Assembly (NCBI GenBank): GCA_049651845.1
Contig: JBASCW010000037.1
Span: 501-64,500, forward strand
DNA: 64,000 nt
Reading direction: 5' to 3'
Source: Burkholderiales bacterium
GTDB taxonomy: Bacteria > Pseudomonadota > Gammaproteobacteria > Burkholderiales > SG8-39
Shown in pieces: positions 13,983 to 31,063 of this stretch (positions are counted from its first letter, which is position 1; the number at the start of each line of letters is the position of its first letter). The notes beneath the pieces were generated by a model. It was given only the letters and a program-made list of their open reading frames with translations, had not been told where the DNA came from and ran no database searches. Both the position numbers and the translations under genes were made by a program.

Positions 13983-14573
13983 GTGGGAGAGCGATGGACG
14001 CGCTGGCGCTTCGAGCGGCACGCGAAGGAGCAGCTCGCGCCGCTGTACGGCATGGCGCTGCGCCTCACGGGGCGGCACGAGGACGCCGAGGACCTCGTGC
14101 AGGACACGATCGTCAAGGCCTACCAGGCCTACGGCGGGGCCCGCTTCGAGGGCCCGGCCGGCTTCCGGGGCTGGCTGTTCACGATCCTGGCGAACGGCTT
14201 CCGGGACAGATACCGCCGGCGTGGCCGCTCGCCCGAAGTCGCGCTCGAGCCGTCGGAGGACGATCCAGACGCAAAAGTGATCGAGCTGGTTCCGGATTTT
14301 GCGCCGGGCCCGGAAGCCCGGGCCGAGACCACGCTCTTGCGCGAAGCCGCGCAGGGCGTCATGGAGCGCATGGCTCCCGAGATCCGGCTTGCCGTGACGC
14401 TCTTCTTCGTCGAGGGTTGTACTTACCAGGAGATCGCCGATATCACCGGATGCCCCATCGGCACGGTCATGTCGCGGCTCTGGCGGGGGCGCCGAATCCT
14501 GCGGGATAAACTCGCCCGCTTCGGTGAAGAGGAATCTGTGCCCGCGCGGCGCCGAAAGGTGGAAGGATCATGA
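13983..14573 (+). CDS. ECF-type RNA polymerase sigma factor
   Basis: 196 aa with AEDLVQDTIVKAY, WLFTILANGFRDRYRR and TYQEIADITGCPIGTVMSRLWRGR. GTG start. Confidence 0.85.
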   Translation: MGERWTRWRFERHAKEQLAPLYGMALRLTGRHEDAEDLVQDTIVKAYQAYGGARFEGPAGFRGWLFTILANGFRDRYRRRGRSPEVALEPSEDDPDAKVIELVPDFAPGPEARAETTLLREAAQGVMERMAPEIRLAVTLFFVEGCTYQEIADITGCPIGTVMSRLWRGRRILRDKLARFGEEESVPARRRKVEGS

Positions 14574-15400
14574 ACCCGATGATACCGAAGTGCGGCGATG
14601 TATCGAGCCGGCTGCATGGGTACGCCGACCATGCGCTGCCCGCCGCAGAACGCCGTCTCATCGAGGCGCACCTCGAAGGCTGCCCGACGTGCAGGGCGGA
14701 GCTGGCGCAAATCGAGGCGGTTGAGACGCGCCTTCGGCATCTGTGGCGGGTGCAGAGCGCGCCGGCGCCGGAGCTGTGGGAGCGAATCCGGATGCGCCTC
14801 GCGCCGCCGGCTTCCGTCCGGAGGCCCCTTATTCCATGGCCTGGGCGCGGATGGCAGCGGGCGGCCGCTGCGTTTGCGGTGGTGGCCGCTGTCGCCGGGA
14901 CGACCGTGGTCGGATACCACCTGGTGGAAACCCGCCACGCCGAGAGCCGGTTCGTCGCGGCGCCGATCGAGGAGCTGAAAGCGTTCGTCGACAGCCGCAG
15001 GCCGATGGATGTCGCGACCACCGACCTTGGCGAGCTGCACGGATGGTTCAGGGGCAAGATCGATTTCTCGATTCCGGAGCCGAGGACCCGTGGCGACGTG
15101 CGCCTTGTCGGAGGGCGGCTGTGCTTCTTTCTCGAGCGGCGCATCGCCTCGATGATGTACGAGGCGGCCGGCGGCCGCGTCGTCTCGCTGTACGTAATCC
15201 CGGCGCACTTGGAGACTCTCGACTCGGACTCCAGGCACGTCGTCGCCGGGGAGCCGGTCAGCTTGAAGCGGCTCGGCGGCTATACGCAGGTCATGTGGCA
15301 GCGCGACAAGCTCGTGTATGCCCTGGTCGGAGACATGCCGGCGGCGCAACTGATGGAGCTCACTTCGGAGTTCCTGCATTCGACGCGGGAGCCCGCATGA
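14570..15400 (+). CDS. Membrane anti-sigma factor (zf-HC2 N-terminus)
   Basis: 4-nt overlap with the sigma gene. HLEGCPTCRAEL zinc-finger motif, one TM helix (AAAAFAVVAAVAGTTVVGY) and a ~170-aa periplasmic domain. Confidence 0.7.
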   Translation: MNPMIPKCGDVSSRLHGYADHALPAAERRLIEAHLEGCPTCRAELAQIEAVETRLRHLWRVQSAPAPELWERIRMRLAPPASVRRPLIPWPGRGWQRAAAAFAVVAAVAGTTVVGYHLVETRHAESRFVAAPIEELKAFVDSRRPMDVATTDLGELHGWFRGKIDFSIPEPRTRGDVRLVGGRLCFFLERRIASMMYEAAGGRVVSLYVIPAHLETLDSDSRHVVAGEPVSLKRLGGYTQVMWQRDKLVYALVGDMPAAQLMELTSEFLHSTREPA

Positions 15401-15996
15401 ACCGGCTGCGCCGCCTGCTCATCGCCGCCATCGCGCTCGCGCCGCTCGCCGCGCGCGGGCAGCCGCGCTTCGTCGAGCTCGAGCGCGCGCTGCCGGTCGA
15501 GGCAGCGGACAGGATCGAGGTTATCGAGTTCTTCTGGTACGGCTGCATCCACTGCTACAACTTCGAGCCGCTGATGGAGAGCTGGCTGAAGAAGGTGCCG
15601 CCGGATGTGCAGGTCCGGCGCGTGCCGGCAGTGTTCAACGAGCGCATGGCGCGCGATGCCGCGATCTTCTACGCCTTCGAATCGCTCGGCGTGGCCGCCA
15701 GGCTGCACCGGCCACTCTTCGACGCGATTCATCGCGGCCGGCTGCGCACCGACCAGCCGCATGCGCTCGCCGAATGGCTGCAGCGCAACGGCATCGACGC
15801 CGGAAAATTCGACGACATGTCGAAATCCTTCGGCGTGCAGAGCAGGGTGCGCCGGGCGGCGCAGCTTTCGTCCGCGTACAAGATCGACGGCACGCCCGCG
15901 ATGGCGGTCCATGGCCGCTATGCCGTGAGCTCCAGCCCGGACATGCTGCGCACCGTCGAGCACCTGATCGAGACGGTCAGGAAGCCGAAGCCGTAG
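15397..15996 (+). CDS. dsbA: DsbA-family thiol:disulfide oxidoreductase (CIHC active site)
   Basis: The ATG overlaps the anti-sigma stop. It has a signal peptide, the motif EFFWYGCIHCYNFEP and a C-terminal KIDGTPAMAV cis-Pro-loop region. Confidence 0.8.
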   Translation: MNRLRRLLIAAIALAPLAARGQPRFVELERALPVEAADRIEVIEFFWYGCIHCYNFEPLMESWLKKVPPDVQVRRVPAVFNERMARDAAIFYAFESLGVAARLHRPLFDAIHRGRLRTDQPHALAEWLQRNGIDAGKFDDMSKSFGVQSRVRRAAQLSSAYKIDGTPAMAVHGRYAVSSSPDMLRTVEHLIETVRKPKP

Positions 15997-16044
15997 CGAA
16001 TAGTTTGGCGCGCTGCGTCGTTCTAGTGGGGAGGAGGCAAGCCC

Positions 16045-16632
16045 ATGAGCGACCAAGAACACCACGACTGCCCCGGTCTTTGCATGAGCCGCAGGGAGGC
16101 CCTGAAGCTGGGGGCCGGCGGCGTTGCGGTCGGTGTCTTCGGACTGCCTGGGGACGCGGCCGCAAAGTCGAGCGATGTCCTGGCCTATCCGCGAAAGCGC
16201 GTCGCCCAGATCAGCCGGCTGGAAGAAGGCGCTCCGCTCGCCTTCACCTATCCCCTCGAACAGCAGCCGAATTTCATCGTCAGGCTCGGGGCACCCGCCC
16301 AGGGCGGCGTGGGGCCGGGCCGCGACATCGTGGCGTTCAGCTCGCTCTGCACGCATATGGGCGGCAACCTGCGAGGCCGCTATCGCCATGACCTCAAGGC
16401 GATCGGCCCCTGTCCGTTTCACTTTTCGACCTTCGATCTGACGAGAAGCGGCATCCCGGTGCACGCCAGCGCCACGCAGCTCTTGCCGCAAGTCGTCCTC
16501 GAGACGGCGGGCGACGACATCTTCGCGGTCGGCGTGCACGGCCTGATCTACGGTTTCCGGCACAACCTGAAGGACGGGACGCTAGCGGCCGGCGCTATCC
16601 CTGCGGGTGCGTCGAAAACCGCGCGCGGTTGA
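16045..16632 (+). CDS. Tat-signal Rieske [2Fe-2S] small subunit, arsenite-oxidase AioB-like
   Basis: Twin-arginine signal MSRREALKLGAGGVAV. Rieske ligands CTH (in CTHMGG) and CPFH (in GPCPFHFSTFD). It sits immediately upstream of the Mo subunit, as in aioBA. Confidence 0.8.
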   Translation: MSDQEHHDCPGLCMSRREALKLGAGGVAVGVFGLPGDAAAKSSDVLAYPRKRVAQISRLEEGAPLAFTYPLEQQPNFIVRLGAPAQGGVGPGRDIVAFSSLCTHMGGNLRGRYRHDLKAIGPCPFHFSTFDLTRSGIPVHASATQLLPQVVLETAGDDIFAVGVHGLIYGFRHNLKDGTLAAGAIPAGASKTARG

Positions 16633-16646
16633 ACAAGGGAGAAACC

Positions 16647-19268
16647 ATGTCCGAAAACAGCCAGCATCGCACCCGCCGTCAATTCCTCCTCGCCGCGAGG
16701 ACGACCACCGGGGACTACGGCGCCTACGATATTCCGCAGGACGAGGTGCCCATCCCGCCGGCGAACGCGCAGGTGCTGCCTACCGCCTGCGAATACTGCA
16801 TCGTGGGCTGCGGCTACAAGGCGTATGTCTGGCCGGTCGATGCCCCCGCCGCCGGCGCCAAGGCCTCCGATAACGCGTTGCAGGCGAGCTATCCGGTGAA
16901 GCCGGCAACCGGGCAGTGGATCAGCCCGAACATGCACAACATCGTGCGCCGCGACGGCAAGCTGCATCACGTCGTCATCCTGCCCGACGGCGAGAGCGTC
17001 GTGAACAAGAAAGGCAATCACAGCATTCGCGGCGGCGCGATGGCGCAGAAGGTCTATAACCCCGAGAAGCCAACCGCGGACCGATTGCAGACGCCGCTCT
17101 TGCGCGTGCGCAACATGCTGCTGCCCGTGTCGTGGGATACCGCGACGAGCATCGTCGCCGAATTGTCCAAGCACGTGATCGAGAAGCACGGCGCCGCGGC
17201 CTGGGCGGCGCGCTTCTACAGCTACCACTTCTGGGAAAACACCTACGCCATCACCAAGCTCGTATTCGGCTCCATCGGCACGCCCAATGCCGCCGAGCAC
17301 GACAAGCCGACCGCGCAGAACGACGCCGCCGGGCTCGATGACGCGGGCGTGGACGGGTTCTCGTCCTCGTACGGCGATTGGAAGCTGGCCGACGTCATCT
17401 ACATCAGCGGCAACGATCCCTACGAGAACCAGACCATTCTCTTCACCGAGTGGATGGCGCCGGGCGGCGCGAAAATCGTATTCGTCAACCCGCGCAAGAG
17501 CCCGACCGCGGCCTACGCCGAGCGCACCGGCGGCGTTCATTTGCAGTTGCTGCCCGGAACCGATTCGCTGCTCAACAACGCGATCGCGCGCATCGTTCTC
17601 GAGAACGGTTGGGAGGACGGCGACTGGATCGGCCGCGTAATCGCGAGCCGGGAGGATATTCAGAAGGAGACTTCGAGCTGGCGCCGGACGCGGTTCGGGT
17701 TGAGCTTCGCCGAATACAAGGAATGGCTGCTCTCGGACGACGAATACAAGCTCGACAACGCGGCGAGAATCACGGGCGTTCCGGCGGAGAAAATCAGGCT
17801 CGCCGCCGAGATGCTGGCGCGGCCCTTGGGCAAGGTGCGCCCGAAGACCTCGTTCCTGCTGGAGAAGGGCAACTACTGGTCCTTCAACTATCCCAACTCG
17901 GGCTCGTTGTCGGCGCTCGGTCTGATCTGCGGTGCGGGCGGCCGCCCCGGGCAGGTCATGTCGCGCGTCGGCGGCCATCAGCGCGGCATGATGAGCGGCG
18001 CGGCATACCCCCTCGCCAAATCGCCCACCGTCTATCACGACGTCCGGCCCGGCGACCCGGGCGGCGGCAAGATCCCCCTCAACGTCGATGAAATGGCGTT
18101 CAAGGGCAACACGCGCCTGACCTGGGTGATCGGCACCACCTGGGTCACCGCCATGGCGTCGGGGCAGTCGCACCGGGACCGCATCGCGGCGCTGACGCGC
18201 AATCACCCGGCGCAAGTGACCTCTCTGGACAAGGACGAGGCGATCGCCGAACTGAAGAAGCGCGCCGACAGCGGCGGCATGGTTCTCATCCAGCAGGACG
18301 TGTACGCCAACGATCTGAGCGAGTATGCCGACCTGGTGCTGCCGGCCTCCGGCTGGGGCGAGCAGGACTTCGCCCGCGCGCAGGGCGAGCGCCGCCTGCG
18401 GATCTATTCGAAGTTCTACGACGCCCCGGGCGAGGCGAAGGCCGACTGGTGGATCGTCGCGCAGGTGGCGAAAAAGATGGGCTTCAAAGGCTACGACTGG
18501 TCGAGCTCCAACGAGGTCTTCGAGGAAGCCGCGGCGCGCTCCAAGGGCGGGGCTTACGACTATACGGCGGTGGTCGAGTTCGCCCGCAAAAACGGCAAGC
18601 GCGCGCACGAGCTGCTGCGCGAGATGAGCACCACCGGCATCCAGCTTCCCGCGCGCATCGAGGACGGCAAGCTCGTCGGCACCACGCGCCTGCACGACCA
18701 GACCTTTCCCGCCGGCAAAGAGGCGAACAAGATCGTCAAGCAATTCAATACCGCGAGCGGCAAGGCGATCCTGGTCAAGGGCGACTGGCGCATCGCAAAG
18801 CCGGTTCGAGAGAAGTACGCGCCGCGCGAAGGCGAGTTGTGGATGATCAACGGCCGCATCAACGAACTGTGGCAGACGATGTATGACGACCTGCGCAAGT
18901 CCTACGTCAAGCGCCGCTACCCCTCCAATTTTCTGTTCATCAACCCGGTTGATGCCAAGGCGCGCCAGGTCGAAAGCGGCGACCTGGTGAGCGTGGAGAA
19001 CGACTATGTCGTCAACATCATGGGCGAGGTCACGAAGGGCGCGCTGTCCCTGGTGGCCTACGTGACCGACGAGGTCGCCGCCGGGGTAGGCTATACCTAC
19101 TCGTTTTACCCGGGGCAGAACTCGAACACCATTGTGCCGTCGGTGACCGATCCGATTACCGGGGTCTACAACTACAAGATCGGCAAAGGGCGCGTGCGCA
19201 AGATCGGCGAGACGCCCCTGAAGCACGTCGATGGCGGCATGTCGTTCGTGCCGCGCAGCATCGGTTGA
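16647..19268 (+). CDS. Molybdopterin (bis-PGD) oxidoreductase large subunit, arsenite-oxidase AioA-like
   Basis: RBS AAGGGAG 5 nt before the ATG at 16647. AioA-type 3Fe-4S motif IPPANAQVLPTACEYCIVGCGYKAYVWP. SRVGGHQRG, and a C-terminus (GKGRVRKIGE, MSFVPRSIG) co-linear with AioA as I remember it. Confidence 0.85.
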   Translation: MSENSQHRTRRQFLLAARTTTGDYGAYDIPQDEVPIPPANAQVLPTACEYCIVGCGYKAYVWPVDAPAAGAKASDNALQASYPVKPATGQWISPNMHNIVRRDGKLHHVVILPDGESVVNKKGNHSIRGGAMAQKVYNPEKPTADRLQTPLLRVRNMLLPVSWDTATSIVAELSKHVIEKHGAAAWAARFYSYHFWENTYAITKLVFGSIGTPNAAEHDKPTAQNDAAGLDDAGVDGFSSSYGDWKLADVIYISGNDPYENQTILFTEWMAPGGAKIVFVNPRKSPTAAYAERTGGVHLQLLPGTDSLLNNAIARIVLENGWEDGDWIGRVIASREDIQKETSSWRRTRFGLSFAEYKEWLLSDDEYKLDNAARITGVPAEKIRLAAEMLARPLGKVRPKTSFLLEKGNYWSFNYPNSGSLSALGLICGAGGRPGQVMSRVGGHQRGMMSGAAYPLAKSPTVYHDVRPGDPGGGKIPLNVDEMAFKGNTRLTWVIGTTWVTAMASGQSHRDRIAALTRNHPAQVTSLDKDEAIAELKKRADSGGMVLIQQDVYANDLSEYADLVLPASGWGEQDFARAQGERRLRIYSKFYDAPGEAKADWWIVAQVAKKMGFKGYDWSSSNEVFEEAAARSKGGAYDYTAVVEFARKNGKRAHELLREMSTTGIQLPARIEDGKLVGTTRLHDQTFPAGKEANKIVKQFNTASGKAILVKGDWRIAKPVREKYAPREGELWMINGRINELWQTMYDDLRKSYVKRRYPSNFLFINPVDAKARQVESGDLVSVENDYVVNIMGEVTKGALSLVAYVTDEVAAGVGYTYSFYPGQNSNTIVPSVTDPITGVYNYKIGKGRVRKIGETPLKHVDGGMSFVPRSIG

Positions 19269-19279
19269 GGAGAGCCGAC

Positions 19280-20026
19280 ATGAGAATCGCCCGTCAACTC
19301 CTTCTTGCCGGCCTCACGGGACTCGCCGCGCTCCAGGCGGATGCGCAGACCCGATCCACGGCGCCGGCCGTAACCCCGGCCGGCAAGGCAATCTATGCGC
19401 GCGAATGCGCCGCCTGCCACGGCGTGAAGGGAGACGGCGACGGCCCAGGGGCGCATATCGTCAATCCGGCGCCTCGTGATTTCACCCTCAACGTGTTCAA
19501 GTTCCGCACCACGCCGAGCGGCCAGCCGCCAACCGACGCGGATCTCTTCAAGATCATCACCGATGGTGTCGCGGGCACGGCCATGCCCAGCTTCCGCGAG
19601 CTGCCGGAGAGCGAACGCTGGTCGCTGGCCGCCGTCGTCAAGCAGTTCGCCGCCATCGGTGTGCGCGCCAAGCCGATCGCGATTCCCGCCGAGCCGCAAG
19701 CCACGGCGGCGCTCCTGGAGCAAGGCAAGACGGTCTACGGTGCGCTCAAGTGCGCCAACTGCCATGGCACGGAAGGGCGGGGCGACGGGCCTTCCGCGCT
19801 GACCCTGAAGGACGACGCGAAGCAGCGCGTCTGGGCGCCTAGCCTGACTGCCGGCGCCTTCAAGAGCGGCCGCGATCCGAAAGCTCTCTATGCGCGCATT
19901 GCGACCGGGCTCGACGGCACGCCGATGCCGTCTTACGCGGCCGAGGCGAAGCCCGAGGAAATCTGGGCGCTGGTGCACTTCATCCAGAGCCTGTCGAAAA
20001 CGCCCGCCAGGGAGAAACGCAATTGA
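19280..20026 (+). CDS. Periplasmic dihaem cytochrome c
   Basis: Signal peptide and two CxxCH motifs (CAACH, CANCH). Each is followed by the G-TAMP/GTPMP Met-loop pattern. RBS GAGGAG lies upstream of the ATG at 19280. Confidence 0.85.
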   Translation: MRIARQLLLAGLTGLAALQADAQTRSTAPAVTPAGKAIYARECAACHGVKGDGDGPGAHIVNPAPRDFTLNVFKFRTTPSGQPPTDADLFKIITDGVAGTAMPSFRELPESERWSLAAVVKQFAAIGVRAKPIAIPAEPQATAALLEQGKTVYGALKCANCHGTEGRGDGPSALTLKDDAKQRVWAPSLTAGAFKSGRDPKALYARIATGLDGTPMPSYAAEAKPEEIWALVHFIQSLSKTPAREKRN

Positions 20027-20766
20027 GGCCCTGCCTTCGACCCTTGGCGGTCGCGATGGCATTTGGCTCCTGCGCCCTGATCGGAAGCGCACACGCGTAC
20101 CAGGCCGGAAGCGTCGTCGACGGTGGATCGATTCGCGGCACGGTGAGATTCGATGGCACGCCGCCGCCATCGAAGAAGCTGCCGATCAACAAGGACAACG
20201 AAGTGTGCGGCCCCGGCCCTTTCGAGCACAAGGAGGTCGATGTCGGCGCCAACGGCGCGCTCAAGGGCGTCGTCGTCTACCTCGAGAAAGTGGAGAAAGG
20301 CAAAGTCTGGCCGAGCGCGAGCTACTTGCTCGACCAGACAAAATGCGCGTTTACGCCCGCGCTTCAGGTCGTGCGTAATGGCGCCAGCCTTACCATCCGC
20401 AACAGCGATCCGGTGCTGCACAACGTTCACCCCTACGAGATCGTCGGCAAGTCGCGCCGCACACTGTTCAACCTGGCGCAGCCGACACAGGGCCAGACCA
20501 ACACGATGAAGATCGACGCGAAGCGCGGGCGCGCCATCGAACTGTCGTGCGATGCGCACAACTGGATGAGCGGCTGGGTCTACGTCGTCGACAATCCCTA
20601 CTACGCGCTCGTCGGGGCCGATGGCAAATTCGAAATCGGCGGCGTGCCGCCGGGCGAATACAAAGTCATGGCTTGGCATCCGACGCTCGGCACCGTCAGC
20701 CAGACGGTGAAGGTGGCGGCCAAGGGCGCGGCGGACGCCGCGTTCGCTTTCAAACCCGGCTCGTAA
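20023..20766 (+). CDS. Secreted cupredoxin-like (type-1 copper) protein with carboxypeptidase-regulatory-like beta-sandwich segments
   Basis: Signal peptide. Candidate T1Cu ligands are His in DPVLHNVHPY and C-x2-H-x2-M in SCDAHNWM (amicyanin-like spacing). The C-terminal DGKFEIGGVPPGEYKVMAWH is CarboxypepD_reg-like. Confidence 0.55.
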   Translation: MRPCLRPLAVAMAFGSCALIGSAHAYQAGSVVDGGSIRGTVRFDGTPPPSKKLPINKDNEVCGPGPFEHKEVDVGANGALKGVVVYLEKVEKGKVWPSASYLLDQTKCAFTPALQVVRNGASLTIRNSDPVLHNVHPYEIVGKSRRTLFNLAQPTQGQTNTMKIDAKRGRAIELSCDAHNWMSGWVYVVDNPYYALVGADGKFEIGGVPPGEYKVMAWHPTLGTVSQTVKVAAKGAADAAFAFKPGS

Positions 20767-24181: not shown

Positions 24182-24190
24182 GGTGCCGCG

Positions 24191-24289
24191 ATGAACGGTG
24201 TCAGCGTGCTGATGGCGATCACGATCGCGAACGGAATGTTCCTGCTGCTGGAGCTGGCCCTGAACGTATTCGGCTCCCTGTTTGGCTGA
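24191..24289 (+). CDS. Hypothetical 32-aa single-helix ORF
   Basis: MNGVSVLMAITIANGMFLLLELALNVFGSLFG fits exactly between neighbours. Support comes only from position and hydrophobicity. Confidence 0.2.
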   Translation: MNGVSVLMAITIANGMFLLLELALNVFGSLFG

Positions 24290-24290
24290 G

Positions 24291-24383
24291 ATGTCGCTCC
24301 CGGAGGCGATCGCGTTCGCGGTTTTCCTGGTGATGACCCCGGCGTTTTTCGCCTGGGTCGCTTACCTGGCGATCCGCAAGTAG
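24291..24383 (+). CDS. Hypothetical 30-aa single-helix ORF
   Basis: MSLPEAIAFAVFLVMTPAFFAWVAYLAIRK starts 1 nt after the previous stop. Support comes only from position and hydrophobicity. Confidence 0.2.
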   Translation: MSLPEAIAFAVFLVMTPAFFAWVAYLAIRK

Positions 24384-24390
24384 CGCAACG

Positions 24391-25086
24391 ATGCCGGCAC
24401 TCGGCTACGCGCTGACTTTTGTCGCCGGCGTGGCGGGCAGCCTCCACTGCATCGGCATGTGCGGTGGTTTTACCTGCGCGTTGCGCGGCGCGTCGCGCGA
24501 CAGCGCCGCCTGGCTGCCGCGGCAGCTTCTCTACAACTGCGGGCGCGTCACGACCTATGCGTTTCTCGGCGCGCTCGCCGGCGCGCTCGGCCGGAGCCTG
24601 CATGGCCGGCTCGACCTGGCGCAGCGCTCGCTCTCCGTGCTCGCCGGTCTGCTCATGGTGGTGATGGCGCTGCAGCTTTCCGGTTTTCTTGGCCGGCGGC
24701 ACGGTACCGGCGGTTTCGCTACCCTGAATTTCACAGCCGCACTGGGCGGCCTGGTGCGAACGCCGCATGCGGCGGGGCCGCTCGCGCTGGGTGTGGCCAA
24801 CGGTTTCCTGCCCTGTCCCCTGGTCTACGCCTTCGCGCTGCAGGCGGCCGCGGCGGGCGGCCCGGTGCCGGGCGCCTTGATCATGGCGGCGTTCGGGCTC
24901 GGCACCTTTCCCGCCATGTTTCTGATGGCGGGCCTCGGCGGATGGATCGGCGCCGTCTGGCGCCGTCGCGGGGTGCGCCTCGCTGCCGTGTTCATCCTGC
25001 TGCTCGGGATTGGAACGACCGTGCGCGGACTGCTGCCGGCCGAGGCGTTGCACGGCCCGTCTGGCGCCCATTCGCATCCCATGTGA
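24391..25086 (+). CDS. DsbD_2/TauE-like membrane protein with HCxGMCGG motif
   Basis: 231 aa, about 6 TM, with SLHCIGMCGGF in the first helix. This type is commonly found beside CcoI-class ATPases. Confidence 0.55.
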   Translation: MPALGYALTFVAGVAGSLHCIGMCGGFTCALRGASRDSAAWLPRQLLYNCGRVTTYAFLGALAGALGRSLHGRLDLAQRSLSVLAGLLMVVMALQLSGFLGRRHGTGGFATLNFTAALGGLVRTPHAAGPLALGVANGFLPCPLVYAFALQAAAAGGPVPGALIMAAFGLGTFPAMFLMAGLGGWIGAVWRRRGVRLAAVFILLLGIGTTVRGLLPAEALHGPSGAHSHPM

Positions 25087-25087
25087 C

Positions 25088-27178
25088 ATGGAAACCGCCC
25101 GCAATTCCTTCTGTGCGCACTGCGCGCTGCCGATCGGCCGCCGGCCCGATCTGCGCCAGGTGAGCGGCGAGGCGCGCGTCTTCTGCTGTTATGGCTGCGC
25201 GATCGCCTTTCAGGTACGCCACGGCAACCACGAGGAGGCGGACGCCGCTTCGTTCCTGGTGCGCCTCGGCACCGGCGCCTTTCTCGCCATGAACGTCATG
25301 ATGTTGAGCTGGTTGTTCTACGGCGACTTCCCGGACCTTGACGGGGCGCTGCCGCGCGCCGGGATCCTGTGGGTGGTATGGCTGCTCGCAACTCCCGCGG
25401 TGGCGATCCTGGGGTGGCCGTTCGCGAGCGAGGCATGGCAAGAGGCGAAAAACGCCCGCGTCGGCGCGTCGGGGCTCGCCGTTTTCGGTGTCGCCTGCGC
25501 TTATCTTTACTCGACCTTCGTTCTCTTGCGCGGCGGCGAGGAGGTGTACTTCGACACGGCGACCATGGTGCTGGTCCTCTTTACTCTCGGCCGCTACCTG
25601 GAGGCCGCGGGGCGCGCCCGCGCGGCGCGCGATCTTGCGCCGATGCTCGAGGCGGAATCGCGAACGGCACGTGTCGGCGATGTCATCCGCGTCGCGCCTG
25701 GAGAGCGTATCGCGGTCGACGGTGTCATCGTCGAGGGACGCGCATTCGTGGACGAGGCGGTCATCTCGGGTGAGAGCCGGCGGCTTGAAAAGTCCGCGGG
25801 CGCAAGCGTGACCGCCGGCAGTTTGAATCTGGACGGCCATTTGCTGGTGCGCTGCGAAGCGGCCGGCGGCGACACGCGCTGGGGACAGATCTGCCTCGCG
25901 GTGCGCTCGGCGCTCAGCGCGCGCTCGCCGCTGCAGGGCGTTGCAGATCGTATTTCCGCGGCCGCTGTGCCGCTCGTGCTCGCGGTTGCGGCTGTGGTCG
26001 TCGCGGCCGGCGTATCTTCGCTTGGGTTCGACGAGGCCATGTTGCGCGGCGTTGCGGTACTCGTTGTCGCCTGTCCCTGCGCGCTCGGCCTGGCGGCGCC
26101 GCTCGCGGCAGCGCTTGGCGTGGCGAGACTGACGCGGCAGGGATGCATCGTGCGCAGCGGCGGCGTGCTCGAGTCCCTCGCCCGCGCGCACACCATCCTT
26201 TTCGACAAGACGGGAACCTTGACCTCGGGCACGCCGCGTCTGGTTGCGATCCAAACGAACGGCGTCGCGGCAGATTTGCTGCTGCGGCGCGCGGCGGGAC
26301 TCGAGCAGGGTTCCGGGCACGCCCTCGGACGAGGGATCGCATCAGCCGCCGCGGCGAGAGGGCTTCTGCCGCTCGCCGCACGCGACGCGCGCAGCATACC
26401 CGGCTGCGGCGTCGTTGCGACGGCCGAGGACGGCTCGACCGCCGCAGGGAGCGCGAAATGGCTGGCCGAGCTTGGCTTTCAGCCGGCCGGAGGCGGCATC
26501 GCAGAAGCGGCCGCGAGCCATGCGGCAAGCGGTTTCGCGCTGGTCCATGTCGGCTGGGCGGGCGCGGAGCGCGGCCTGATCGCGTTCGAGCATGAGCTGC
26601 GGCCCGAGGCCGAGGCGACCCTCGCAGCGCTCAGGCAGCAGGGCATTCGCTCGTTCGTCGTCAGCGGCGACCTGGCCGAAGCGACGCGGCGCACTGCCGA
26701 TGCCGCGGGCGCCGACGACTGGGTGTCCCAGGTCCCGCCCGAAGCGAAGGCCGAGCTGGTCGCGCTGTTGCGGCGCGAGCGCGGCGTCGTCGCCATGGTC
26801 GGTGACGGCATCAACGACGCAATGGCGCTTGCCGAAGCCGATGTCGGCATTTCCATCGCAAGCGCGACCGACCTCGCCCGGGAGACCGCCGACCTGGTGC
26901 TGCCGCGCAACAGCTTGGCGCTGCTGCCCTGGGCCGTCAGAATGGCAGGCGCGGTGCGGCGCACCATCGTCTCGAATCTCGTCTGGGCGTTCGGCTACAA
27001 CGCGGTCGCCGTCGCGCTTGCGGCGAGCGGTTTGCTGCAACCGATAGGAGCCGCTGCGCTGATGGCGGGCTCGAGCCTTCTGGTGATCGTGAATTCCCTG
27101 CGCCTGGAGCGTTTCCCGGCGCCCGAGGAAAAGGAAGCGGCCGTTGAAAGCGGATTGCCGGATGTTGCCCATGTTTAG
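25088..27178 (+). CDS. ccoI: Copper-translocating P1B-type ATPase, CcoI/FixI-like
   Basis: N-terminal Cys-rich region (CAHC, CCYGC), CPC motif (VVACPCALGLA), the phosphorylation site DKTGTLT and the hinge VGDGINDA. Confidence 0.85.
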   Translation: METARNSFCAHCALPIGRRPDLRQVSGEARVFCCYGCAIAFQVRHGNHEEADAASFLVRLGTGAFLAMNVMMLSWLFYGDFPDLDGALPRAGILWVVWLLATPAVAILGWPFASEAWQEAKNARVGASGLAVFGVACAYLYSTFVLLRGGEEVYFDTATMVLVLFTLGRYLEAAGRARAARDLAPMLEAESRTARVGDVIRVAPGERIAVDGVIVEGRAFVDEAVISGESRRLEKSAGASVTAGSLNLDGHLLVRCEAAGGDTRWGQICLAVRSALSARSPLQGVADRISAAAVPLVLAVAAVVVAAGVSSLGFDEAMLRGVAVLVVACPCALGLAAPLAAALGVARLTRQGCIVRSGGVLESLARAHTILFDKTGTLTSGTPRLVAIQTNGVAADLLLRRAAGLEQGSGHALGRGIASAAAARGLLPLAARDARSIPGCGVVATAEDGSTAAGSAKWLAELGFQPAGGGIAEAAASHAASGFALVHVGWAGAERGLIAFEHELRPEAEATLAALRQQGIRSFVVSGDLAEATRRTADAAGADDWVSQVPPEAKAELVALLRRERGVVAMVGDGINDAMALAEADVGISIASATDLARETADLVLPRNSLALLPWAVRMAGAVRRTIVSNLVWAFGYNAVAVALAASGLLQPIGAAALMAGSSLLVIVNSLRLERFPAPEEKEAAVESGLPDVAHV

Positions 27179-28058
27179 AGCGTATTTCCTTGCGTTGGCC
27201 GCGACCCTCGTGGTTGCCCCGGCATGGTCCGCAACGGAGCCTGCGGCGGTGGTTCTGGAGTACGCGCGCGCCCTGTATGCGCGGGACTTCGAGCGGGCTT
27301 ACCGGCTCGTTTCGCCGCGCGACAAGGCGGTCAAGCCGCGCCCGGTCTATCTTCAGGAGAACCGCGCGCTCGAGGGCGAAGCGCTGGAGTTTTCGCGGCT
27401 GCTGGCGTCGATGGTCGCGGTCAGCAGGATCAGGACGAACCGCACGGGCGATCGGGCGACGGTGACCTTCCGGGCGCTGCTGCCGGACGCAAACGCGGAT
27501 CGCGTGCGCGAGATGACCAAAGGTTTCGACGCGGCCGCCTTGAACAAGCTCAGCGCCTCGGAGCGCGAGGCGCGCATGCGCGAGCTCAAGCGCCTTTCCG
27601 GCATGCGACGGCTCCCCACCATCGAGAGCGCCAACGAGGAGTGGCATCTCGTCCGGGTGGACGGCCGGTGGTGGCTCGATCTCGACTGGGGTGGCGCGGT
27701 CCGCGTGCGCTTCGGCGCCGCGACGTTCGCCGGGCTGGGATGGGAATTCGCGCCGTTGCAGGAAGAGGTGCGAGCCCGTCCCGGCGAAACCCTTCAGGTC
27801 GTCTACCGGATCAGGAACGCCACGGCCGGCACGGTAACGGCGAAGGCACGCCATGTCGTTACGCCCGGCGCCGGCGCCAAGCACCTCGACATCGTGACCT
27901 GTTTCTGCTTTCTGGAGCAGACGCTCGGACCGGGACAAGTAGTCGAGCTGCCCGTGGTCTTTCGCGTGAGCTACGACGCGCCGGAGAACATCGGCCCGAT
28001 CGAAGTCCGCTACGAGCTCTATCCGGCGGAGGCGTTTCCAAAGGACGCGGCCTCATGA
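27162..28058 (+). CDS. Secreted two-domain protein with C-terminal Cox11/CtaG-like copper-chaperone domain
   Basis: Signal peptide MLPMFRAYFLALAATLVVAPAWSA. The C-terminal ~110 aa carry PGETLQVVYRIRNAT, DIVTCFCFLEQTLGPGQ and PVVFRV, including the CFCF copper motif at 27900-27911. The N-terminal domain is unassigned. Confidence 0.55.
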   Translation: MLPMFRAYFLALAATLVVAPAWSATEPAAVVLEYARALYARDFERAYRLVSPRDKAVKPRPVYLQENRALEGEALEFSRLLASMVAVSRIRTNRTGDRATVTFRALLPDANADRVREMTKGFDAAALNKLSASEREARMRELKRLSGMRRLPTIESANEEWHLVRVDGRWWLDLDWGGAVRVRFGAATFAGLGWEFAPLQEEVRARPGETLQVVYRIRNATAGTVTAKARHVVTPGAGAKHLDIVTCFCFLEQTLGPGQVVELPVVFRVSYDAPENIGPIEVRYELYPAEAFPKDAAS

Positions 28059-28585
28059 GGCTTCTCCTCTGTGCGCTGCTGATTGGGCCTTTGGCGGTCT
28101 TCGAGGCTGCCGCTGGCGGCCGGATCGAAGTGCGGGTGACCGATCATCGTGCGGGAATCGAGAATTTTCGCAGTCTCACGATTTCGGTATCGGAGGTGTG
28201 GTTGCACCGCTCCGGCCGCGCGCGCCGCGACGGCTGGACGGCGGCACTGAAAGATTCGCGCCCGGTGGACATCGTGCCCCTCAAGGACGGTAAATGGGAG
28301 AAGGTCGGCATAGGCGCGCTTCCCGCCGGCAAGTACGACGCCATCCGCGTCGATGCCATCGTACGTGAGGCCCGGCACAAGGGCACAAATGCGGTAGCCA
28401 TGGACCCGATGAGCACCGTGATCGCCTTCCATGACGAAGTCGAGATCAAGAAGGACGTGCTGCTGCCCGTGCTCCTGGACTTCCATGTCGAGGACCAGAC
28501 CGATCATGCGCCGCCCCGGTACGTTCTCAAGCTGCGCCACGTCGCTATCGGGCAGGACCCGCCCGTTACGGGAGGGGGACGGTGA
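28055..28585 (+). CDS. Secreted DUF4382-like protein
   Basis: ATGA overlap with the previous gene, plus a signal peptide. The pattern RIEVRVTDH, ISVSEVWLH, VDIVPLKDG, LPAGKYDAIRV resembles DUF4382. Confidence 0.4.
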   Translation: MRLLLCALLIGPLAVFEAAAGGRIEVRVTDHRAGIENFRSLTISVSEVWLHRSGRARRDGWTAALKDSRPVDIVPLKDGKWEKVGIGALPAGKYDAIRVDAIVREARHKGTNAVAMDPMSTVIAFHDEVEIKKDVLLPVLLDFHVEDQTDHAPPRYVLKLRHVAIGQDPPVTGGGR

Positions 28586-28649
28586 ATCGGCGCCATGGGT
28601 TGCTCGTGGTTTGCCTGTGAGCCTCCTGGTCAGCCTGCATAACCTCTCC

Positions 28650-29381
28650 ATGCTCCGTCCAATCGCCGTCCTGCTCTGTCTAATCCCCGCGTGCGTCTCA
28701 GCGAACGAGGCGGCGATTCGCAAGATCCTCGAGCCGATGCTGGGCGGGGCGAGAATCGAGGCGGTCGAGCCGGCGCCGGTCGCCGGGCTTTTCGAAGTCC
28801 GGGTACAGACGGCGGAGGGGCTTCGCATCCTCTACACCGATGCGACCGGCGCCTATATCGTCCAGGGGAGCATCGTCGAGCCGCGCACCGGCCGTGACCT
28901 GACCGAAGAGAAGCTGCGCAAGCTCAGCGCGATCAAGTTCGAATCACTGCCCCTCGAGCGGGCGGTGACGATCAAGCGCGGCAACGGCCGGCGCGTTCTG
29001 GCGATGTTCTCCGATCCCTACTGCCCGGCGTGCAAGCAGTTCGAAGGGGCGCTGCAGCAGGTCGAGGACATCACGATCCACGTCTTCATGTTCCCGGTCA
29101 TCCGGCCGGCTCTGGCCGAGCACTCGAGCGCCGTATGGTGCGCGCGCGACCGCGGCACCGCCTGGCTCGACCTGGTGCTTCGCGGCAAGCGGCCGGGCGC
29201 GAATACCGCGTGCGCGAACCCGATCGAGCGCAACCTGGAGCTGGGACGCTCGCTGCGCGTGAACGCCACGCCGACCCTGATCCTCGCCAACGGCGAGCGC
29301 TACAGCGGCGGCCTGCCCATTCCGGAGCTGACGAAGCTGCTCGATCAGGCGGCCGCATCGCAGTCCTCCAGACCTCGCTGA
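28650..29381 (+). CDS. DsbC/DsbG-family periplasmic disulfide isomerase (CPAC)
   Basis: Signal peptide, an N-terminal dimerisation-like domain and a thioredoxin fold with FSDPYCPACKQFE and VNATPTLILANG. Confidence 0.75.
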   Translation: MLRPIAVLLCLIPACVSANEAAIRKILEPMLGGARIEAVEPAPVAGLFEVRVQTAEGLRILYTDATGAYIVQGSIVEPRTGRDLTEEKLRKLSAIKFESLPLERAVTIKRGNGRRVLAMFSDPYCPACKQFEGALQQVEDITIHVFMFPVIRPALAEHSSAVWCARDRGTAWLDLVLRGKRPGANTACANPIERNLELGRSLRVNATPTLILANGERYSGGLPIPELTKLLDQAAASQSSRPR

Positions 29382-29385
29382 ATCC

Positions 29386-29880
29386 ATGAAGGTGCTCGGG
29401 TTCGCCGGCTGGTCGGGGAGCGGCAAGACCACGCTCATCGAGAAACTGATCCCGCGTTTTGTGCGGCGCGGCCTGCGCGTGTCGCTGATCAAGCATGCGC
29501 ACCATAGCTTCGATGTTGACCAGCCGGGCAAGGATTCCTACCGCCACCGCCACGCCGGGGCGGCCGAGATCCTCGTTACCTCGTCGCGCCGCTGGGTGCT
29601 GATGCACGAGCTGCGCGGCGCGCACGAGCCGGCCTTCGAGGAGCAGGTGAAGCGCCTCTCGCCGTGCGATCTGCTGCTCGTCGAGGGCTTCAAGCACGCG
29701 CCAATCCCCAAGATCGAGGTCTGGCGCGCCGCGACCGGCGAGCCGCTGCTGCATCCCGGTGACCCGCAGGTCGTGGCGGTCGCCTCGGACACGAAGCTCG
29801 ACATCCGTCTGCCGCTGCTCGACCTGAACGACGACGCGGGGATTTCTGAATTCATTCACAAGAAGCTCGAACTGGCGTGA
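29386..29880 (+). CDS. mobB: Molybdopterin-guanine dinucleotide biosynthesis adapter MobB
   Basis: 164 aa with Walker A GWSGSGKTTLIEKL, LIKHAHHSFDVDQPGKDSYRH and LVEGFK. Confidence 0.85.
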   Translation: MKVLGFAGWSGSGKTTLIEKLIPRFVRRGLRVSLIKHAHHSFDVDQPGKDSYRHRHAGAAEILVTSSRRWVLMHELRGAHEPAFEEQVKRLSPCDLLLVEGFKHAPIPKIEVWRAATGEPLLHPGDPQVVAVASDTKLDIRLPLLDLNDDAGISEFIHKKLELA

Positions 29881-30440
29881 GCAGGCTCGGCATTGCGCTC
29901 ACAGCCTGCATGGTGATCGCCGCGATCTCGATAGGGGTCTACTCCTTTTCGGATAGCACGGCATCACGCGCAGGCAGCCTGCCGTTCGCGCGCGGGAGTG
30001 CGCCGAAGCCGATCGCGGAGCTGCGATTTCAGGACGGCGCGGGCCGGCCGCGCTCCCTCGCCGGCTTTCAGGGCAAACTTGTGCTGGTCAACATCTGGGC
30101 GACCGGGTGCGGCCCGTGCCGCGAGGAGATGCCGGCGCTCGAGCGCCTGCACGCCGGGCTGGGCGGGCCCGATTTCGAAGTGGTGGCGCTCTCGATCGAT
30201 CAGTAAGGGCCGCAGGCCGTGCGCAGGTTCTTCGACGAGATCGGCATCAAGGCGCTGCAGCTCTACATTGATCCGTCGGCGCAAGCGGCGTTCAAGCTGG
30301 GCGCCCCGGGCGTGCCCGCGACCCTGCTCGTCGATCGTTCGGGCCGGGAGATCGGCCGCCACGCGGGGCCGGCGAAATGGGATGCGCCCGAAATCGTCGA
30401 GGATCTGGCGCGGTGCTTGAGGGAAGGAAAGCCGCGTTGA
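29877..30440 (+). pseudogene. TlpA/ResA-like membrane-anchored thioredoxin interrupted by one in-frame TAA
   Basis: Track ORFs 29877-30206 and 30219-40 are in the same frame. Read together they give VNIWATGCGPCREEMP...VVALSIDQ*GPQAVRRFFDEIGI...GVPATLLVDRSGREI, a normal TlpA-type sequence apart from the stop at 30204-30206. Confidence 0.7.
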
Positions 30441-31063
30441 CGGAGACCTCGACTCTTGGAGCGGTAACGGCGTTCGCGGCCGGCACCGTGTCGTTCCCTT
30501 CGCCCTGCGCGCTGCCGCTCGTACCGGCCGACATGTCCTGCGTCACCGGCCAGTCCCTCGCCCCGGGCACCGGCGCTGCGGGAGGGCAAAGCGCGCGCGC
30601 GAATGCTGCGCTGCTGAGCCTATGCTTCGTGCTGGGATTCTCCGCGGTCTTCGTCGCGCTCGGGGCGAGCGCAACCGCACTCGGCCGGCTACTGCTCCAG
30701 TACCGCTACGAGGCGGCAATCGCGGGCGGGGCGCTCGTCATCGTCTTCGGCATTGCCATGCTGGTGGGCGTCGAGCGCATTCCGTTCCTGCGCCGCGACC
30801 TGCACTTTCAGACACGGGTTGCGACCGGCAATCCCGCGTCGGCCTTCCTCCTCGGGCTGGCGTTCGGTTTTGGATGGACGCCGTGCATTGGCCCGATCCT
30901 GGGAGTCATCCTCACGGCCGCGGCGGTGAGCGAATCCGCCTCGGCGGGCATCCGCCTGCTCGGTGCATATTCCGCAGGACTCGGAGCTCCGTTCCTCCTT
31001 ACGGGCTTGGTGCGGAGTCCGCATCCGGCTACGGGCGCGTGCGAGGATTTCACTGATCCCTAA
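30437..31063 (+). pseudogene. CcdA-like membrane protein, degenerate and probably 3'-truncated
   Basis: TTG start overlapping the previous stop. It carries the motifs SFPSPCALPLVP and GWTPCIGPILG. The last expected helix is replaced by a non-hydrophobic tail (RSPHPATGACEDFTDP). Confidence 0.5.

Follow-up and report, generated by a model that had tools for sequence, protein, structure and literature searches.

An Idr-like molybdoenzyme locus with a divergent, cupredoxin-linked cbb3-type oxidase in the place of a peroxidase

What does a molybdoenzyme of the arsenite oxidase family do when it is encoded together with its own electron carriers and a terminal oxidase, and in which direction do the electrons run? 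This question is raised by an unbroken train of genes, all on the + strand, at positions 13983-31063 of a stretch of 64,000 nucleotides from a Burkholderiales bacterium (assembly GCA_049651845.1, contig JBASCW010000037.1, positions 501 to 64,500), the whole of which we refer to as the window (64 kb, G+C ~68%). The train appears to be a conserved periplasmic respiratory cluster under the control of an extracytoplasmic function (ECF) sigma factor and consists of two modules. The first, comprising the sigma and anti-sigma factors, a Rieske subunit, a large subunit and a dihaem cytochrome c, would form an Idr-family molybdoenzyme; the second would combine a type-1 copper cupredoxin with a terminal oxidant-reducing enzyme, predicted to be a cbb3-type oxidase in the window (CcoN through the DUF4382 protein) and one IdrP2-type cytochrome c peroxidase in sister loci. 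We read the locus as one for an oxyanion reductase of the Idr type in which a high-affinity oxidase has taken the place of the peroxidase partner, a reading to which we give slightly less than an even chance.

Gene content and placement of the molybdoenzyme

The train was delimited by open reading frame (ORF) listing, screening of G+C at third codon positions and Pfam and NCBIfam scans; gaps between its genes are at most 64 nt, and many neighbours overlap. Loci of relatives are cited by number (L), the closest relative being L092/L173, with a large subunit 86% identical to that of the window. The genes, with lengths in amino acids (aa), are as follows.

13983-14573, + strand: ECF sigma factor (Pfam Sigma70_r2, Sigma70_r4_2; NCBIfam sigma70-ECF), present in 11/12 close relatives.
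14570-15400, + strand: zinc-finger anti-sigma factor (Pfam zf-HC2; HxxxCxxC, here HLEGCPTC) with a single predicted transmembrane segment (residues 97-119) and a periplasmic domain of ~155 aa; its PDB match was RslA (3hug_B), and the periplasmic domain gave marginal PDB sequence matches.
15397-15996, + strand: DsbA-like thiol oxidase (Pfam DSBA), a window-specific accessory present in neither L092 nor L002-L013.
16045-16632, + strand: Rieske [2Fe-2S] small subunit, IdrB/AioB-like, with a twin-arginine translocation (Tat)-like motif, SRREALK (TIGR02694, 124 bits against a cutoff of 95.65).
16647-19268, + strand: IdrA-like molybdopterin large subunit with an N-terminal 3Fe-4S domain (Pfam Rieske_3, Molybdopterin, Molydop_binding).
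19280-20026, + strand: soluble dihaem cytochrome c with two CxxCH motifs, present in 12/12 relatives.
20023-20766, + strand: predicted two-domain periplasmic cupredoxin of the type-1 copper kind, 247 aa (AlphaFold2 and Foldseek); alternative start at 20044.
20766-22175, + strand: CcoN-like, divergent catalytic subunit of a C-family haem-copper oxidase (Pfam COX1).
22178-23869, + strand: CcoO (monohaem) fused to a dihaem cytochrome c domain (Pfam FixO and two cytochrome c domains), with three CxxCH motifs and an N-terminal transmembrane segment.
23857-24015, + strand: CcoS assembly protein (Pfam FixS; TIGR00847, 29.5 bits against a cutoff of 28.35).
24005-24181, + strand: 58-aa transmembrane protein with the C-terminal end GGLGPGLDY, with homologues in most oxidase-clade loci.
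24191-24289, + strand: 32-aa transmembrane ORF, kept in L092, L003, L007, L008 and L009.
24291-24383, + strand: 30-aa transmembrane ORF, kept in L092, L003, L007 and L009.
24391-25086, + strand: DsbD_2-family membrane protein with an HCIGMCGG motif (Pfam DsbD_2, E 1e-44), found 3' of the oxidase genes in most clade loci.
25088-27178, + strand: CcoI/FixI-type copper P1B ATPase with a CPC motif (Pfam E1-E2_ATPase, Hydrolase and a weak ATPase-cat_bd; TIGR01511).
27162-28058, + strand: secreted protein with a C-terminal Cox11 copper-chaperone domain (CFCF; Pfam CtaG_Cox11) and an uncharacterised N-terminal domain.
28055-28585, + strand: DUF4382 protein with a signal peptide (Pfam DUF4382).
28650-29381, + strand: DsbC/G-like disulfide isomerase (Pfam DsbC_N, Thioredoxin_2), a window-specific accessory not found in L092/L173.
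29386-29880, + strand: MobB, for molybdopterin guanine dinucleotide synthesis (Pfam MobB, E 1e-52), which is also the last train gene in L092/L173.
29877-30440, + strand: TlpA-like redoxin with an in-frame TAA at 30204-30206; Pfam Redoxin covers both halves once the stop is masked.
30377-31063, + strand: CcdA-like thiol transporter (Pfam DsbD_TM, profile positions 6-184 of 219); alternative start at 30437.

The order of the genes and essentially all of their functions had been given by an earlier sequence-only reading of the window and were recovered by our Pfam and NCBIfam scans, and the overlaps that it quoted at 14570/14573, 15397/15400, 20023/20026, 20766, 23857/23869, 28055/28058 and 29877/29880 are present in the sequence. 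The small transmembrane ORFs that it also proposed correspond to 24191-24289 and 24291-24383, both of which are conserved among relatives; the apparent 209-nt gap at 24182-24390 that contains them is therefore coding, which brings the gene count to 21.

That reading had called the large subunit AioA-like. Over 825 aligned columns, we found it to be 49% identical to IdrA of Azonexus hydrophilus NCP973 (L082), which respires iodate (PMC13455634), and 32-33% identical to AioA of Thermus, Burkholderia and Ensifer, and the Rieske subunit was likewise 49% identical to Azonexus IdrB; the Azonexus plasmid carries two peroxidases, the small subunit, the large subunit, a cytochrome c and moaA. Solved AioA structures were matched only with E 1e-84, at about one-third identity. 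A protein search with the large subunit returned ~43 clusters at 60-86% identity, every one of them from proteobacterial metagenome-assembled genomes (MAGs), and a second, very large set at 47-55% identity drawn from many phyla. In a neighbour-joining (NJ) tree of 81 sequences with 100 bootstraps, the non-AioA sequences split from AioA with 100% support. The canonical IdrA clade (49 sequences including Azonexus NCP973, 100% support), nearly all of whose loci have two peroxidase genes, excludes the window enzyme, which belongs to a clade of 13 members (the window and L002-L013) that also has 100% support. A third clade holds 16 sequences from Dehalococcoidia and Thermoplasmata, without partner genes, and its grouping with the window clade received only 42% support.

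The active-site motifs of the window enzyme are AEHDKPTAQND and SRVGGHQRGMM. In all of the non-AioA clades, HDKP..ND and GGHQRG replace the IHNRPAYNSE and GGHQEGY of AioA, and both motifs are common to the window, Azonexus, Thiothrix and other canonical-clade sequences. Of the AioA contacts H195, E203, R419 and H423, the window keeps H, R and H and has D in the place of E203. An additional insertion of ~8 residues after GGHQRG is confined to the window clade, and the 3Fe-4S motif Cx2Cx3C reads CEYCIVGC, a feature also of IdrAB. The description as AioA-like thus stands in the broad family sense, whereas the identity values, the IdrA-type motifs and a clade of its own set the enzyme closer to IdrA and outside AioA in the phylogeny.

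These data bear directly on the possibility that this is an ordinary arsenite oxidase (AioAB) locus, which phylogeny effectively refutes and to which we give next to no credence. The window subunits do pass the NCBIfam cutoffs arsenite_ox_L and arsenite_ox_S, and the database names of relatives point the same way; since NCBIfam holds no IdrA-specific model, the relatives are named "arsenite oxidase" or "arsenate reductase (azurin)", and a curated name cannot separate the AioA, IdrA and window clades. Further likenesses to AioAB are the Rieske_3 domain, the missing amino-acid ligand region, the Tat-Rieske partner and the passage of Aio electrons by a cytochrome c or a cupredoxin (azurin) to an oxidase. 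Against this stand the low identity, the fully supported separation and the replaced signature motifs, the absence of aioXSR, ars and pst neighbours, and the IdrP2 genes of the relatives, and Aio feeds the general chain whereas the window co-encodes an oxidase. AioR, ArsR, ArsC, ArsI and Acr3 gave no tblastn match in the window or in any of the 13 clade loci.

IdrA has been delimited by its idrABP1P2 neighbourhood, with an "unknown clade" as outgroup (PMC8692401), and within this framework the window enzyme counts as neither AioA nor canonical IdrA. Taxa that carry the window clade are not mentioned in the supplements of that paper; the 16-member Dehalococcoidia and Thermoplasmata clade is probably its "unknown clade" together with its Dehalococcoidia outgroup. 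In the loci of this third clade (L014-L029, L043, L052 and L072), the Rieske partner alone is kept nearby, peroxidase, cupredoxin and cytochrome all being absent, and several of the large subunits (e.g. P0049 and P0055) have a Tat signal of their own with a lipobox-like Cys. The N-terminus of the window large subunit (16647-16760) contains a Tat-like TRRQFLLAAR motif and lacks a normal hydrophobic signal region; this motif may be a vestige of the Tat signal known from the Dehalococcoidia clade.

Exchange of peroxidase and oxidase beside a conserved core

Neighbourhoods were compared by tblastn of the window proteins against 80 species-representative loci and by ORF clustering. The Rieske subunit, large subunit, dihaem cytochrome and cupredoxin were found in 12/12 close relatives, and the ECF sigma and anti-sigma pair in 11 of them. 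In six loci (L002, L004, L006, L010, L011 and L013), one cytochrome c peroxidase lies 3' of the cupredoxin gene, and this enzyme is an IdrP2 orthologue, being 51-54% identical to IdrP2 and 39-42% identical to IdrP1. The oxidase module is present in the window, L092, L093, L003, L007, L008, L009 and L012 (continued in L105 of the same MAG), and L005 has neither a peroxidase nor an oxidase. No peroxidase homologue was found in the 64 kb window, and IdrP1 was found in no member of the clade. Pelagibius sp. Alg239-R121 (L004) carries the peroxidase variant; to our knowledge, the oxidase-linked variant has no cultured member, groundwater Methyloligellaceae and Geminicoccaceae being among its hosts.

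In the large-subunit tree, loci with a peroxidase and loci with an oxidase are intermingled, and a peroxidase locus, L002, is the sister of the window, with a large subunit ~77-78% identical. Between these two loci the identity is 77% for the large subunit, 73% for the cytochrome and 70% for the Rieske subunit, and only 42% for the cupredoxin; across the clade, the cupredoxins of oxidase loci are 54-71% identical to that of the window, compared to 41-46% for those of peroxidase loci. Since cupredoxin identity tracks the terminal partner and not the large-subunit phylogeny, the exchanged unit is the cupredoxin together with the terminal enzyme. The molybdoenzyme and the oxidase are adjacent in at least eight genomes, in two gene orders, among Alpha-, Gamma- and unclassified Proteobacteria; the linkage noted in the sequence-only reading is thus real and the unit conserved.

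By Pfam, the product of 20023-20766 gave only a weak CarboxypepD_reg match. Its AlphaFold2 model (pLDDT 91.9) was matched by Foldseek in the PDB to amicyanin, plastocyanin, pseudoazurin and NirK cupredoxin domains with target TM-scores of 0.65-0.72, and the copper ligands H133, C176, H179 and M182 were invariant in an alignment of 41 homologues; the modelled fold and these ligands indicate a two-domain periplasmic type-1 copper protein, so that the earlier cupredoxin call was right. With residues 279-498 of the CcoO fusion, the soluble dihaem cytochrome shares 44% identity (E 8e-55), and it is a paralogue of the dihaem domain of the oxidase. Both carrier families also occur in canonical-clade, two-peroxidase idr loci. 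Among canonical-clade loci, a set from an unclassified bacterial lineage (L041, L048, L054, L055 and L057; e.g. L041 6375-17985) encodes a cupredoxin, two peroxidases, IdrB, IdrA and a monohaem cytochrome c, and further a GltD-like FeS flavoprotein, a Rieske protein, a cytochrome b and a multihaem cytochrome, which looks like a dedicated bc-type input complex attached to Idr. In the cultured Stieleria marina K23_9 (L079), a cupredoxin accompanies idrP1P2BA.

Compared to the idrABP1P2 systems of Pseudomonas sp. SCT, Denitromonas iodatirespirans IR-12 and Azonexus hydrophilus NCP973, the window has both subunits of the two-subunit periplasmic enzyme: a small subunit of the Tat-Rieske kind and a large one carrying 3Fe-4S and molybdenum bis(pyranopterin guanine dinucleotide) (Mo-bisPGD), the motifs HDKP..ND and GGHQ(R/C)G, and 49% identity for each subunit. 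A gene for a c-type cytochrome adjoins the large subunit in both, and an IdrP2 orthologue occurs in the sister loci of the window. The window clade differs in its separate position, its insertion, the clade-wide absence of IdrP1 and the lack of the two peroxidases by which idr loci are recognised (PMC8692401). It differs further in having an ECF sigma and anti-sigma pair in the place of a sigma-54 two-component system, a dihaem cytochrome and a cupredoxin as carriers, and, in the window, a cbb3-type module at the peroxidase position.

The oxidase is itself divergent. Its CcoN-like subunit matched P. stutzeri CcoN (3mk7) with E 1e-53 and is ~30-35% identical to solved CcoN structures. In the P. 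stutzeri alignment it keeps H207, Y251, H257, H258, the HxH pair (345/347), Y223, S240 and Y317, with every haem and CuB histidine and the cross-link tyrosine of helix 7 retained, while E323 is replaced by Q and H243 by G. The subunits score below the NCBIfam cutoffs (ccoN 218 versus 583; ccoO 136 versus 201; ccoP 45 versus 180). Of assembly genes, the train has those for CcoS, the CcoI-like ATPase and the Cox11 domain, and it also holds the small transmembrane ORFs; homologues of CcoG, CcoH and CcoQ were not detected in the train by Pfam or NCBIfam, and the statement that all maturation factors were included was in this respect overstated. From its sequence, we read the CcoN-like enzyme as a divergent O2-reducing C-family oxidase. 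A NO reductase was considered and rejected, given that NorB matched with E 3e-7 versus 1e-53 for CcoN, that the cross-link tyrosine is kept and that copper-delivery genes are present. With the ccoNOQP/ccoGHIS systems the module thus shares a C-family catalytic subunit with its metal ligands and helix-7 tyrosine, a monohaem CcoO, a dihaem domain, CcoS and a CcoI-type ATPase; it departs from them in its sub-cutoff scores, its Gln for Glu323 and the fusion of CcoO to a non-canonical dihaem domain, and in having, instead of CcoQ, CcoG and CcoH, three small transmembrane proteins, one DsbD_2 protein and a cupredoxin of its own, to which Idr-linked loci add the Cox11-domain and DUF4382 proteins.

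The oxidase clade comprises more than 120 protein clusters at least 71% identical, with relatives in at least 123 GTDB species; cultured carriers include Thiocapsa sp. KS1, Pseudothauera rhizosphaerae and Arhodomonas sp. AD133. We read the contexts of the oxidase from 80 fetched loci. In 47 of these, the genes directly 5' encode a cupredoxin of the family found in the window, a Metallophos protein of 375 aa and a SoxA-like monohaem cytochrome c of 152 aa; about seven had the cupredoxin alone upstream, and seven were Idr-linked. Operons of the Metallophos/SoxA type (L084-L087 and L098-L171; e.g. L084 7587-13515) are often close to sox and flavocytochrome c sulfide dehydrogenase (FCSD) genes, and their Metallophos protein gave marginal PDB sequence matches only. 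The cupredoxin gene of the oxidase loci has a comparable pair of ECF sigma and anti-sigma genes 5' of it in Rokubacteria, Methylomirabilota and related groups. The oxidase is therefore not private to the molybdoenzyme locus, contrary to the earlier supposition.

The genes for the Cox11-domain and DUF4382 proteins were found only in the Idr-linked loci among the 80. In an NJ tree with 50 bootstraps, Idr-linked CcoN formed a single clade with 88% support; this clade lies nested among proteobacterial loci of the Metallophos/SoxA type, and the branching order inside it is broadly that of the large subunit. Because the linked CcoN is monophyletic, nested and congruent with the large-subunit tree, these sequence comparisons argue for a single capture of the oxidase by an Idr-like locus, followed by co-inheritance and by several later replacements with IdrP2.

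This single origin also weighs on the possibility that the train consists of two unrelated units that happen to be adjacent, namely an Idr-/Aio-like operon and an ordinary accessory cbb3 operon with maturation genes, which we consider very unlikely. It would accord with the occurrence of the oxidase clade without the molybdoenzyme in most genomes, with the presence of two or more promoter-like sites, to which a site before the Cox11-like gene in L092 possibly adds a third, and with simple promoter and terminator scans that were uninformative. Yet the adjacency recurs in at least eight genomes from several proteobacterial groups in two gene orders, the oxidases of linked loci form one clade whose branching broadly agrees with that of the large subunit, the stop codon of the cupredoxin gene overlaps the CcoN start, and the Cox11-like and DUF4382 genes are limited to the linked version. 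That the cupredoxin tracks the terminal partner, and that the soluble cytochrome resembles the dihaem domain of the oxidase, likewise argue for a linkage that is not accidental.

Direction of electron flow

What the enzyme acts on, which way the electrons flow and what the oxidase does are inferences on our part, and the sequence does not decide the direction. In the reading that we favour, the general chain would reduce the dihaem cytochrome and the cupredoxin, and the molybdoenzyme would spend the electrons on the reduction of iodate or of another high-potential oxyanion with similar chemistry. The role of the Idr peroxidase would pass to the cupredoxin-fed oxidase, which would remove the accompanying oxygen species and conserve energy from it; this species might be O2 from iodine intermediates, or O2 that would otherwise give H2O2 at the reduced enzyme.

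We favour a reductase because IdrA is the closest enzyme to have been characterised and the active-site motifs are of its type, and because 6/12 relatives keep IdrP2, which is sensible as a partner of Idr and not as the sole sink of a dehydrogenase; a peroxidase partner is a hallmark of Idr loci (PMC8692401). Since the two states are interleaved and the large subunits of sister loci so similar, the molybdoenzyme would be expected to have the same function in both, and for an Idr-like enzyme linked to a peroxidase this is most naturally that of a reductase. The occurrence of the same carrier families in canonical two-peroxidase loci, some with a bc-type input complex, points in the same direction. 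So does a model of iodate respiration in Pseudomonas sp. SCT, in which O2 is formed and then respired by a terminal oxidase (summarised in PMC8692401), giving such an oxidase a place already. Finally, a zinc-binding anti-sigma (ZAS)-type factor and thiol-redox neighbours fit the production of hypoiodous acid (HOI) or H2O2.

Several facts weigh against this reading. The window clade lies outside the fully supported canonical IdrA clade, and the window has neither IdrP1 nor a peroxidase of any kind. The cluster contains no quinol-oxidising input module and looks like a self-contained chain from a donor to O2. Peroxidase and oxidase remove different molecules, and their interchange is explained at least as simply by both serving as electron sinks. 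Enzymatic supply of O2 is missing, since no chlorite-dismutase-like gene was found in the Pfam-scanned flanking ORFs at 1-58 kb, those past ~58 kb lying outside the scan. Elsewhere the same oxidase module stands beside a SoxA-like cytochrome and near sulfur-oxidation genes, which looks like a donor-side context, and ECF control differs from the sigma-54 two-component control of canonical idr loci.

Much of this would be accommodated by a dehydrogenase that oxidises a reduced periplasmic substrate (candidates being arsenite, antimonite, selenite, sulfite and reduced iodine species) and passes the electrons, with the dihaem cytochrome and the cupredoxin as carriers, to the dedicated oxidase and on to O2, or, in sister loci, to the peroxidase and H2O2. 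We regard this as a serious competitor, albeit a less probable one. The full donor-to-O2 chain and the lack of a quinol-oxidising module speak for it; the alternation of peroxidase and oxidase would be simple if both are alternative electron sinks, and the exchange of cupredoxin and terminal enzyme as a unit, as well as the homology of the cytochrome to the entry domain of the oxidase, fit a linear chain. Canonical-clade Idr loci are joined by an input bc complex, whereas the window clade is joined by an output oxidase. AioAB shows the family to be capable of working oxidatively, and the "unknown clade" next to IdrA contains proteins of arsenite oxidisers (PMC8692401). The four AioA substrate-contact positions are chemically kept (H, D for E, R and H), and the oxidase module elsewhere adjoins a SoxA-like cytochrome and sulfur-oxidation genes. 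A comparable layout is that of the rus operon of Acidithiobacillus ferrooxidans, in which a primary redox protein of the periplasm or outer side is combined with a dihaem cytochrome of the c4 type, a cupredoxin and a terminal oxidase of its own. The resemblance counts for a dehydrogenase, although the rus system has an aa3-type oxidase, Fe(II) as donor and no molybdoenzyme, and its sequence kinship to the window is limited to generic folds.

On the other side, the nearest characterised enzyme is a reductase and the motifs are IdrA-type; feeding a peroxidase alone, as six sister loci would, is an odd design for a dehydrogenase; ars, aio-regulator and other donor-specific genes occur in none of the 13 loci; and the thiol-repair neighbours and ZAS-type ECF pair point to oxidant stress and not to a benign donor. 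The flow from substrate to O2 that the sequence-only reading had drawn is accordingly not established, IdrP2 standing in the place of the oxidase in half of the 12 closest relatives. Highly improbable, in our estimate, is the special case in which the molybdoenzyme acts oxidatively on a high-potential donor, turning iodide or hypoiodite into iodate, or selenite into selenate; it would explain the insulated high-potential chain of dihaem cytochrome, cupredoxin and private oxidase, and the H2O2-using peroxidase of the sister loci.

For the reductase that we favour, (per)chlorate reduction offers a parallel, where a cbb3 oxidase respires the O2 that chlorite dismutase supplies (PMC10746228). There, too, an oxyhalogen reductase of the DMSO reductase superfamily needs a high-affinity oxidase for periplasmic oxygen, and oxidant stress responses are involved; the cbb3 oxidase of that system is a general one that is not co-encoded, and its O2 comes from the dismutase, of which the scans of ORFs at 1-58 kb gave no trace.

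Control, surroundings and significance

The putative ECF sigma and ZAS anti-sigma pair has sigma regions 2 and 4, the HxxxCxxC motif and a motif of the autoregulation type, and two promoter-like sites were found.

13882-13911, + strand: ECF-type promoter motif GCGAATAG-N15-CGTTCTA, 72 nt 5' of the sigma gene.
15996-16025, + strand: second copy of the ECF-type promoter motif, 20 nt 5' of the Rieske gene.

The pattern GCGAATAG-N15-CGTTCTA, which was derived post hoc from both sites, has exactly two matches in the 64 kb and none in 100 shuffles, and a weaker look-alike lies near 27090. In relatives, GAA[CT]-N16-CGTT[CT]TA, an arrangement characteristic of ECF promoters, precedes the sigma and/or Rieske genes in L092, L003, L007, L008, L009, L010 and L011; in L092 it lies 48 nt 5' of the Rieske gene, and a further copy stands before the Cox11-like gene. 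A scan of 12.8-32.7 kb for sigma-70 promoters and intrinsic terminators gave counts at chance level and was uninformative on transcript structure. Rfam scans (e.g. for the Moco riboswitch) and tRNA scans of the whole window returned nothing and hence no evidence of a riboswitch or an island boundary. The repeated motif suggests putative ECF control of the enzyme genes and at least two transcription starts rather than one; the ECF pair would turn on its own operon and the enzyme operon through the two matching promoters. An ECF pair rather than AioXSR had been proposed before, which agrees with the motif before both genes and with the lack of aioR and ars genes close by, whereas the single 17-kb unit proposed with it has probably to give way to a train with at least two promoters.

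The ZAS motif HxxxCxxC of the anti-sigma factor is also the starting point for the view that the locus is an oxidant-stress defence regulon, in which the ECF pair would sense periplasmic oxidative stress and induce oxidant reductases and thiol repair, the molybdoenzyme acting on oxyhalogen or oxyanion oxidants and the peroxidase or oxidase on H2O2 or O2. Thiol-redox genes lie in or beside the train in the window, in L092 and in L002; the window has an upstream block with a second ECF sigma factor, DsbD and thioredoxin as well as an NrsF-like gene; and IdrP1P2 have themselves been proposed as detoxifiers. We nevertheless think it improbable, as a proton-pumping-type oxidase and its full set of assembly factors would be costly if defence were their only purpose and the thiol genes are variable and non-core; it largely overlaps the reductase reading, from which it differs chiefly in purpose.

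Of the genes at the ends of the train, several listed earlier as maturation functions turned out to be window-specific additions, one of them with an internal stop codon. In L092/L173 the train runs from sigma to MobB without DsbA, DsbC/G, TlpA and CcdA, which are therefore accessories of the window genome and not part of the core; they may serve cytochrome and oxidase maturation and periplasmic thiol repair. The TAA at 30204-30206 falls within a conserved region of the TlpA-like redoxin, and the CcdA-like gene is apparently truncated C-terminally, so that the train may be in decay at its 3' end, or the stop in TlpA and the short CcdA may be local assembly errors. A chimeric assembly of the train as a whole was rejected, the same order being found in the independent assemblies L092/L173, L093, L003, L007, L008 and L009.

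Pfam scans of the flanking ORFs showed that the flanks are rich in periplasmic thiol-redox and oxidant-related genes.

4772-9640, - strand: block encoding a 779-aa DsbD/DsbH-like protein, a DsbD_TM protein, a thioredoxin, a 244-aa uncharacterised protein and a second ECF sigma factor (9053-9640), the last with its own GAAT-N16-CGTCTTA motif at 9646.
9717-13682, divergent to that block: two uncharacterised proteins, followed by the NrsF-like, P460-like and DUF3179 genes.
11311-11616: NrsF-like gene.
11686-12363: cytochrome P460-like protein, a weak match.
12711-13682 and 39323-40891: DUF3179 proteins.
31584-32336, - strand: DsbD_TM gene.
33436-34248, - strand: AhpC/TSA redoxin.
52939-53769, - strand: MsrB.

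In L092, a glutaredoxin, a disulfide reductase and a thioredoxin lie 5' of the sigma gene, and in L002 a DsbH-like thioredoxin lies 3' of the peroxidase. Further from these, positions 36050-37984 hold a bufferin-like operon for a ribosomally synthesised and post-translationally modified peptide (RiPP), with an 83-aa secreted Cys-rich precursor (36050-36301), a DUF692 enzyme of the MbnB/TglH/ChrH kind (36366-37196) and a partner ORF downstream (~37190-37984); this operon may be copper-related, and a DUF692 gene also lies near the idr locus of the Thiothrix plasmid (L091). The only arsenic-flavoured genes of the window, a radical SAM protein with DUF3641 (ArsS-like; 3739-4776, - strand) and an ArsR-family regulator (49688-50185), are both distant from the train. 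Three TctC (Bug-family) periplasmic receptors are encoded at 42666-43760, 53943-54950 and 56913-58058, which points to a host of betaproteobacterial or Burkholderiales-like kind.

The component families of the cluster are all known. We found no description, in the literature that we searched, of its composition, that is, of an Idr-like enzyme or iodate reductase with a cbb3 oxidase, a cupredoxin, ECF control or a CcoO-CcoP fusion, which bears out the earlier impression that such a system had not been described. New, as judged from sequence comparison, would be a distinct Idr-like clade that databases label as arsenite oxidase, the ECF control and carrier pair of this clade and, foremost, its recurrent coupling, apparently of single origin, to a divergent cupredoxin-linked cbb3 oxidase that alternates with IdrP2.

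The window clade adds a third one between AioA and IdrA, and as databases give it arsenic-enzyme names, surveys of arsenic-cycle and iodine-cycle genes probably miscount its members. The oxidase exposes a cupredoxin-linked cbb3 subfamily in at least 123 species, whose partners, the Metallophos protein and the SoxA-like cytochrome, are likewise uncharacterised. Should the enzyme work oxidatively, the cluster would amount to a new pathway of lithotrophy, and, if it forms iodate or selenate, the first dedicated enzyme system for this, supplying in the case of iodate a long-missing step in the marine and groundwater iodine cycle. Two published models of iodate respiration disagree on whether oxygen species are central to it, with O2 respired by a terminal oxidase, or arise as by-products that are cleared by IdrP1P2 (PMC8692401). 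The repeated exchange of IdrP2 and a complete oxidase suggests that an enzyme that reduces oxygen species is a near-obligate partner of the Idr-like family, and this swap of peroxidase and oxidase offers a concrete system for asking which oxygen species iodate-type respiration makes.

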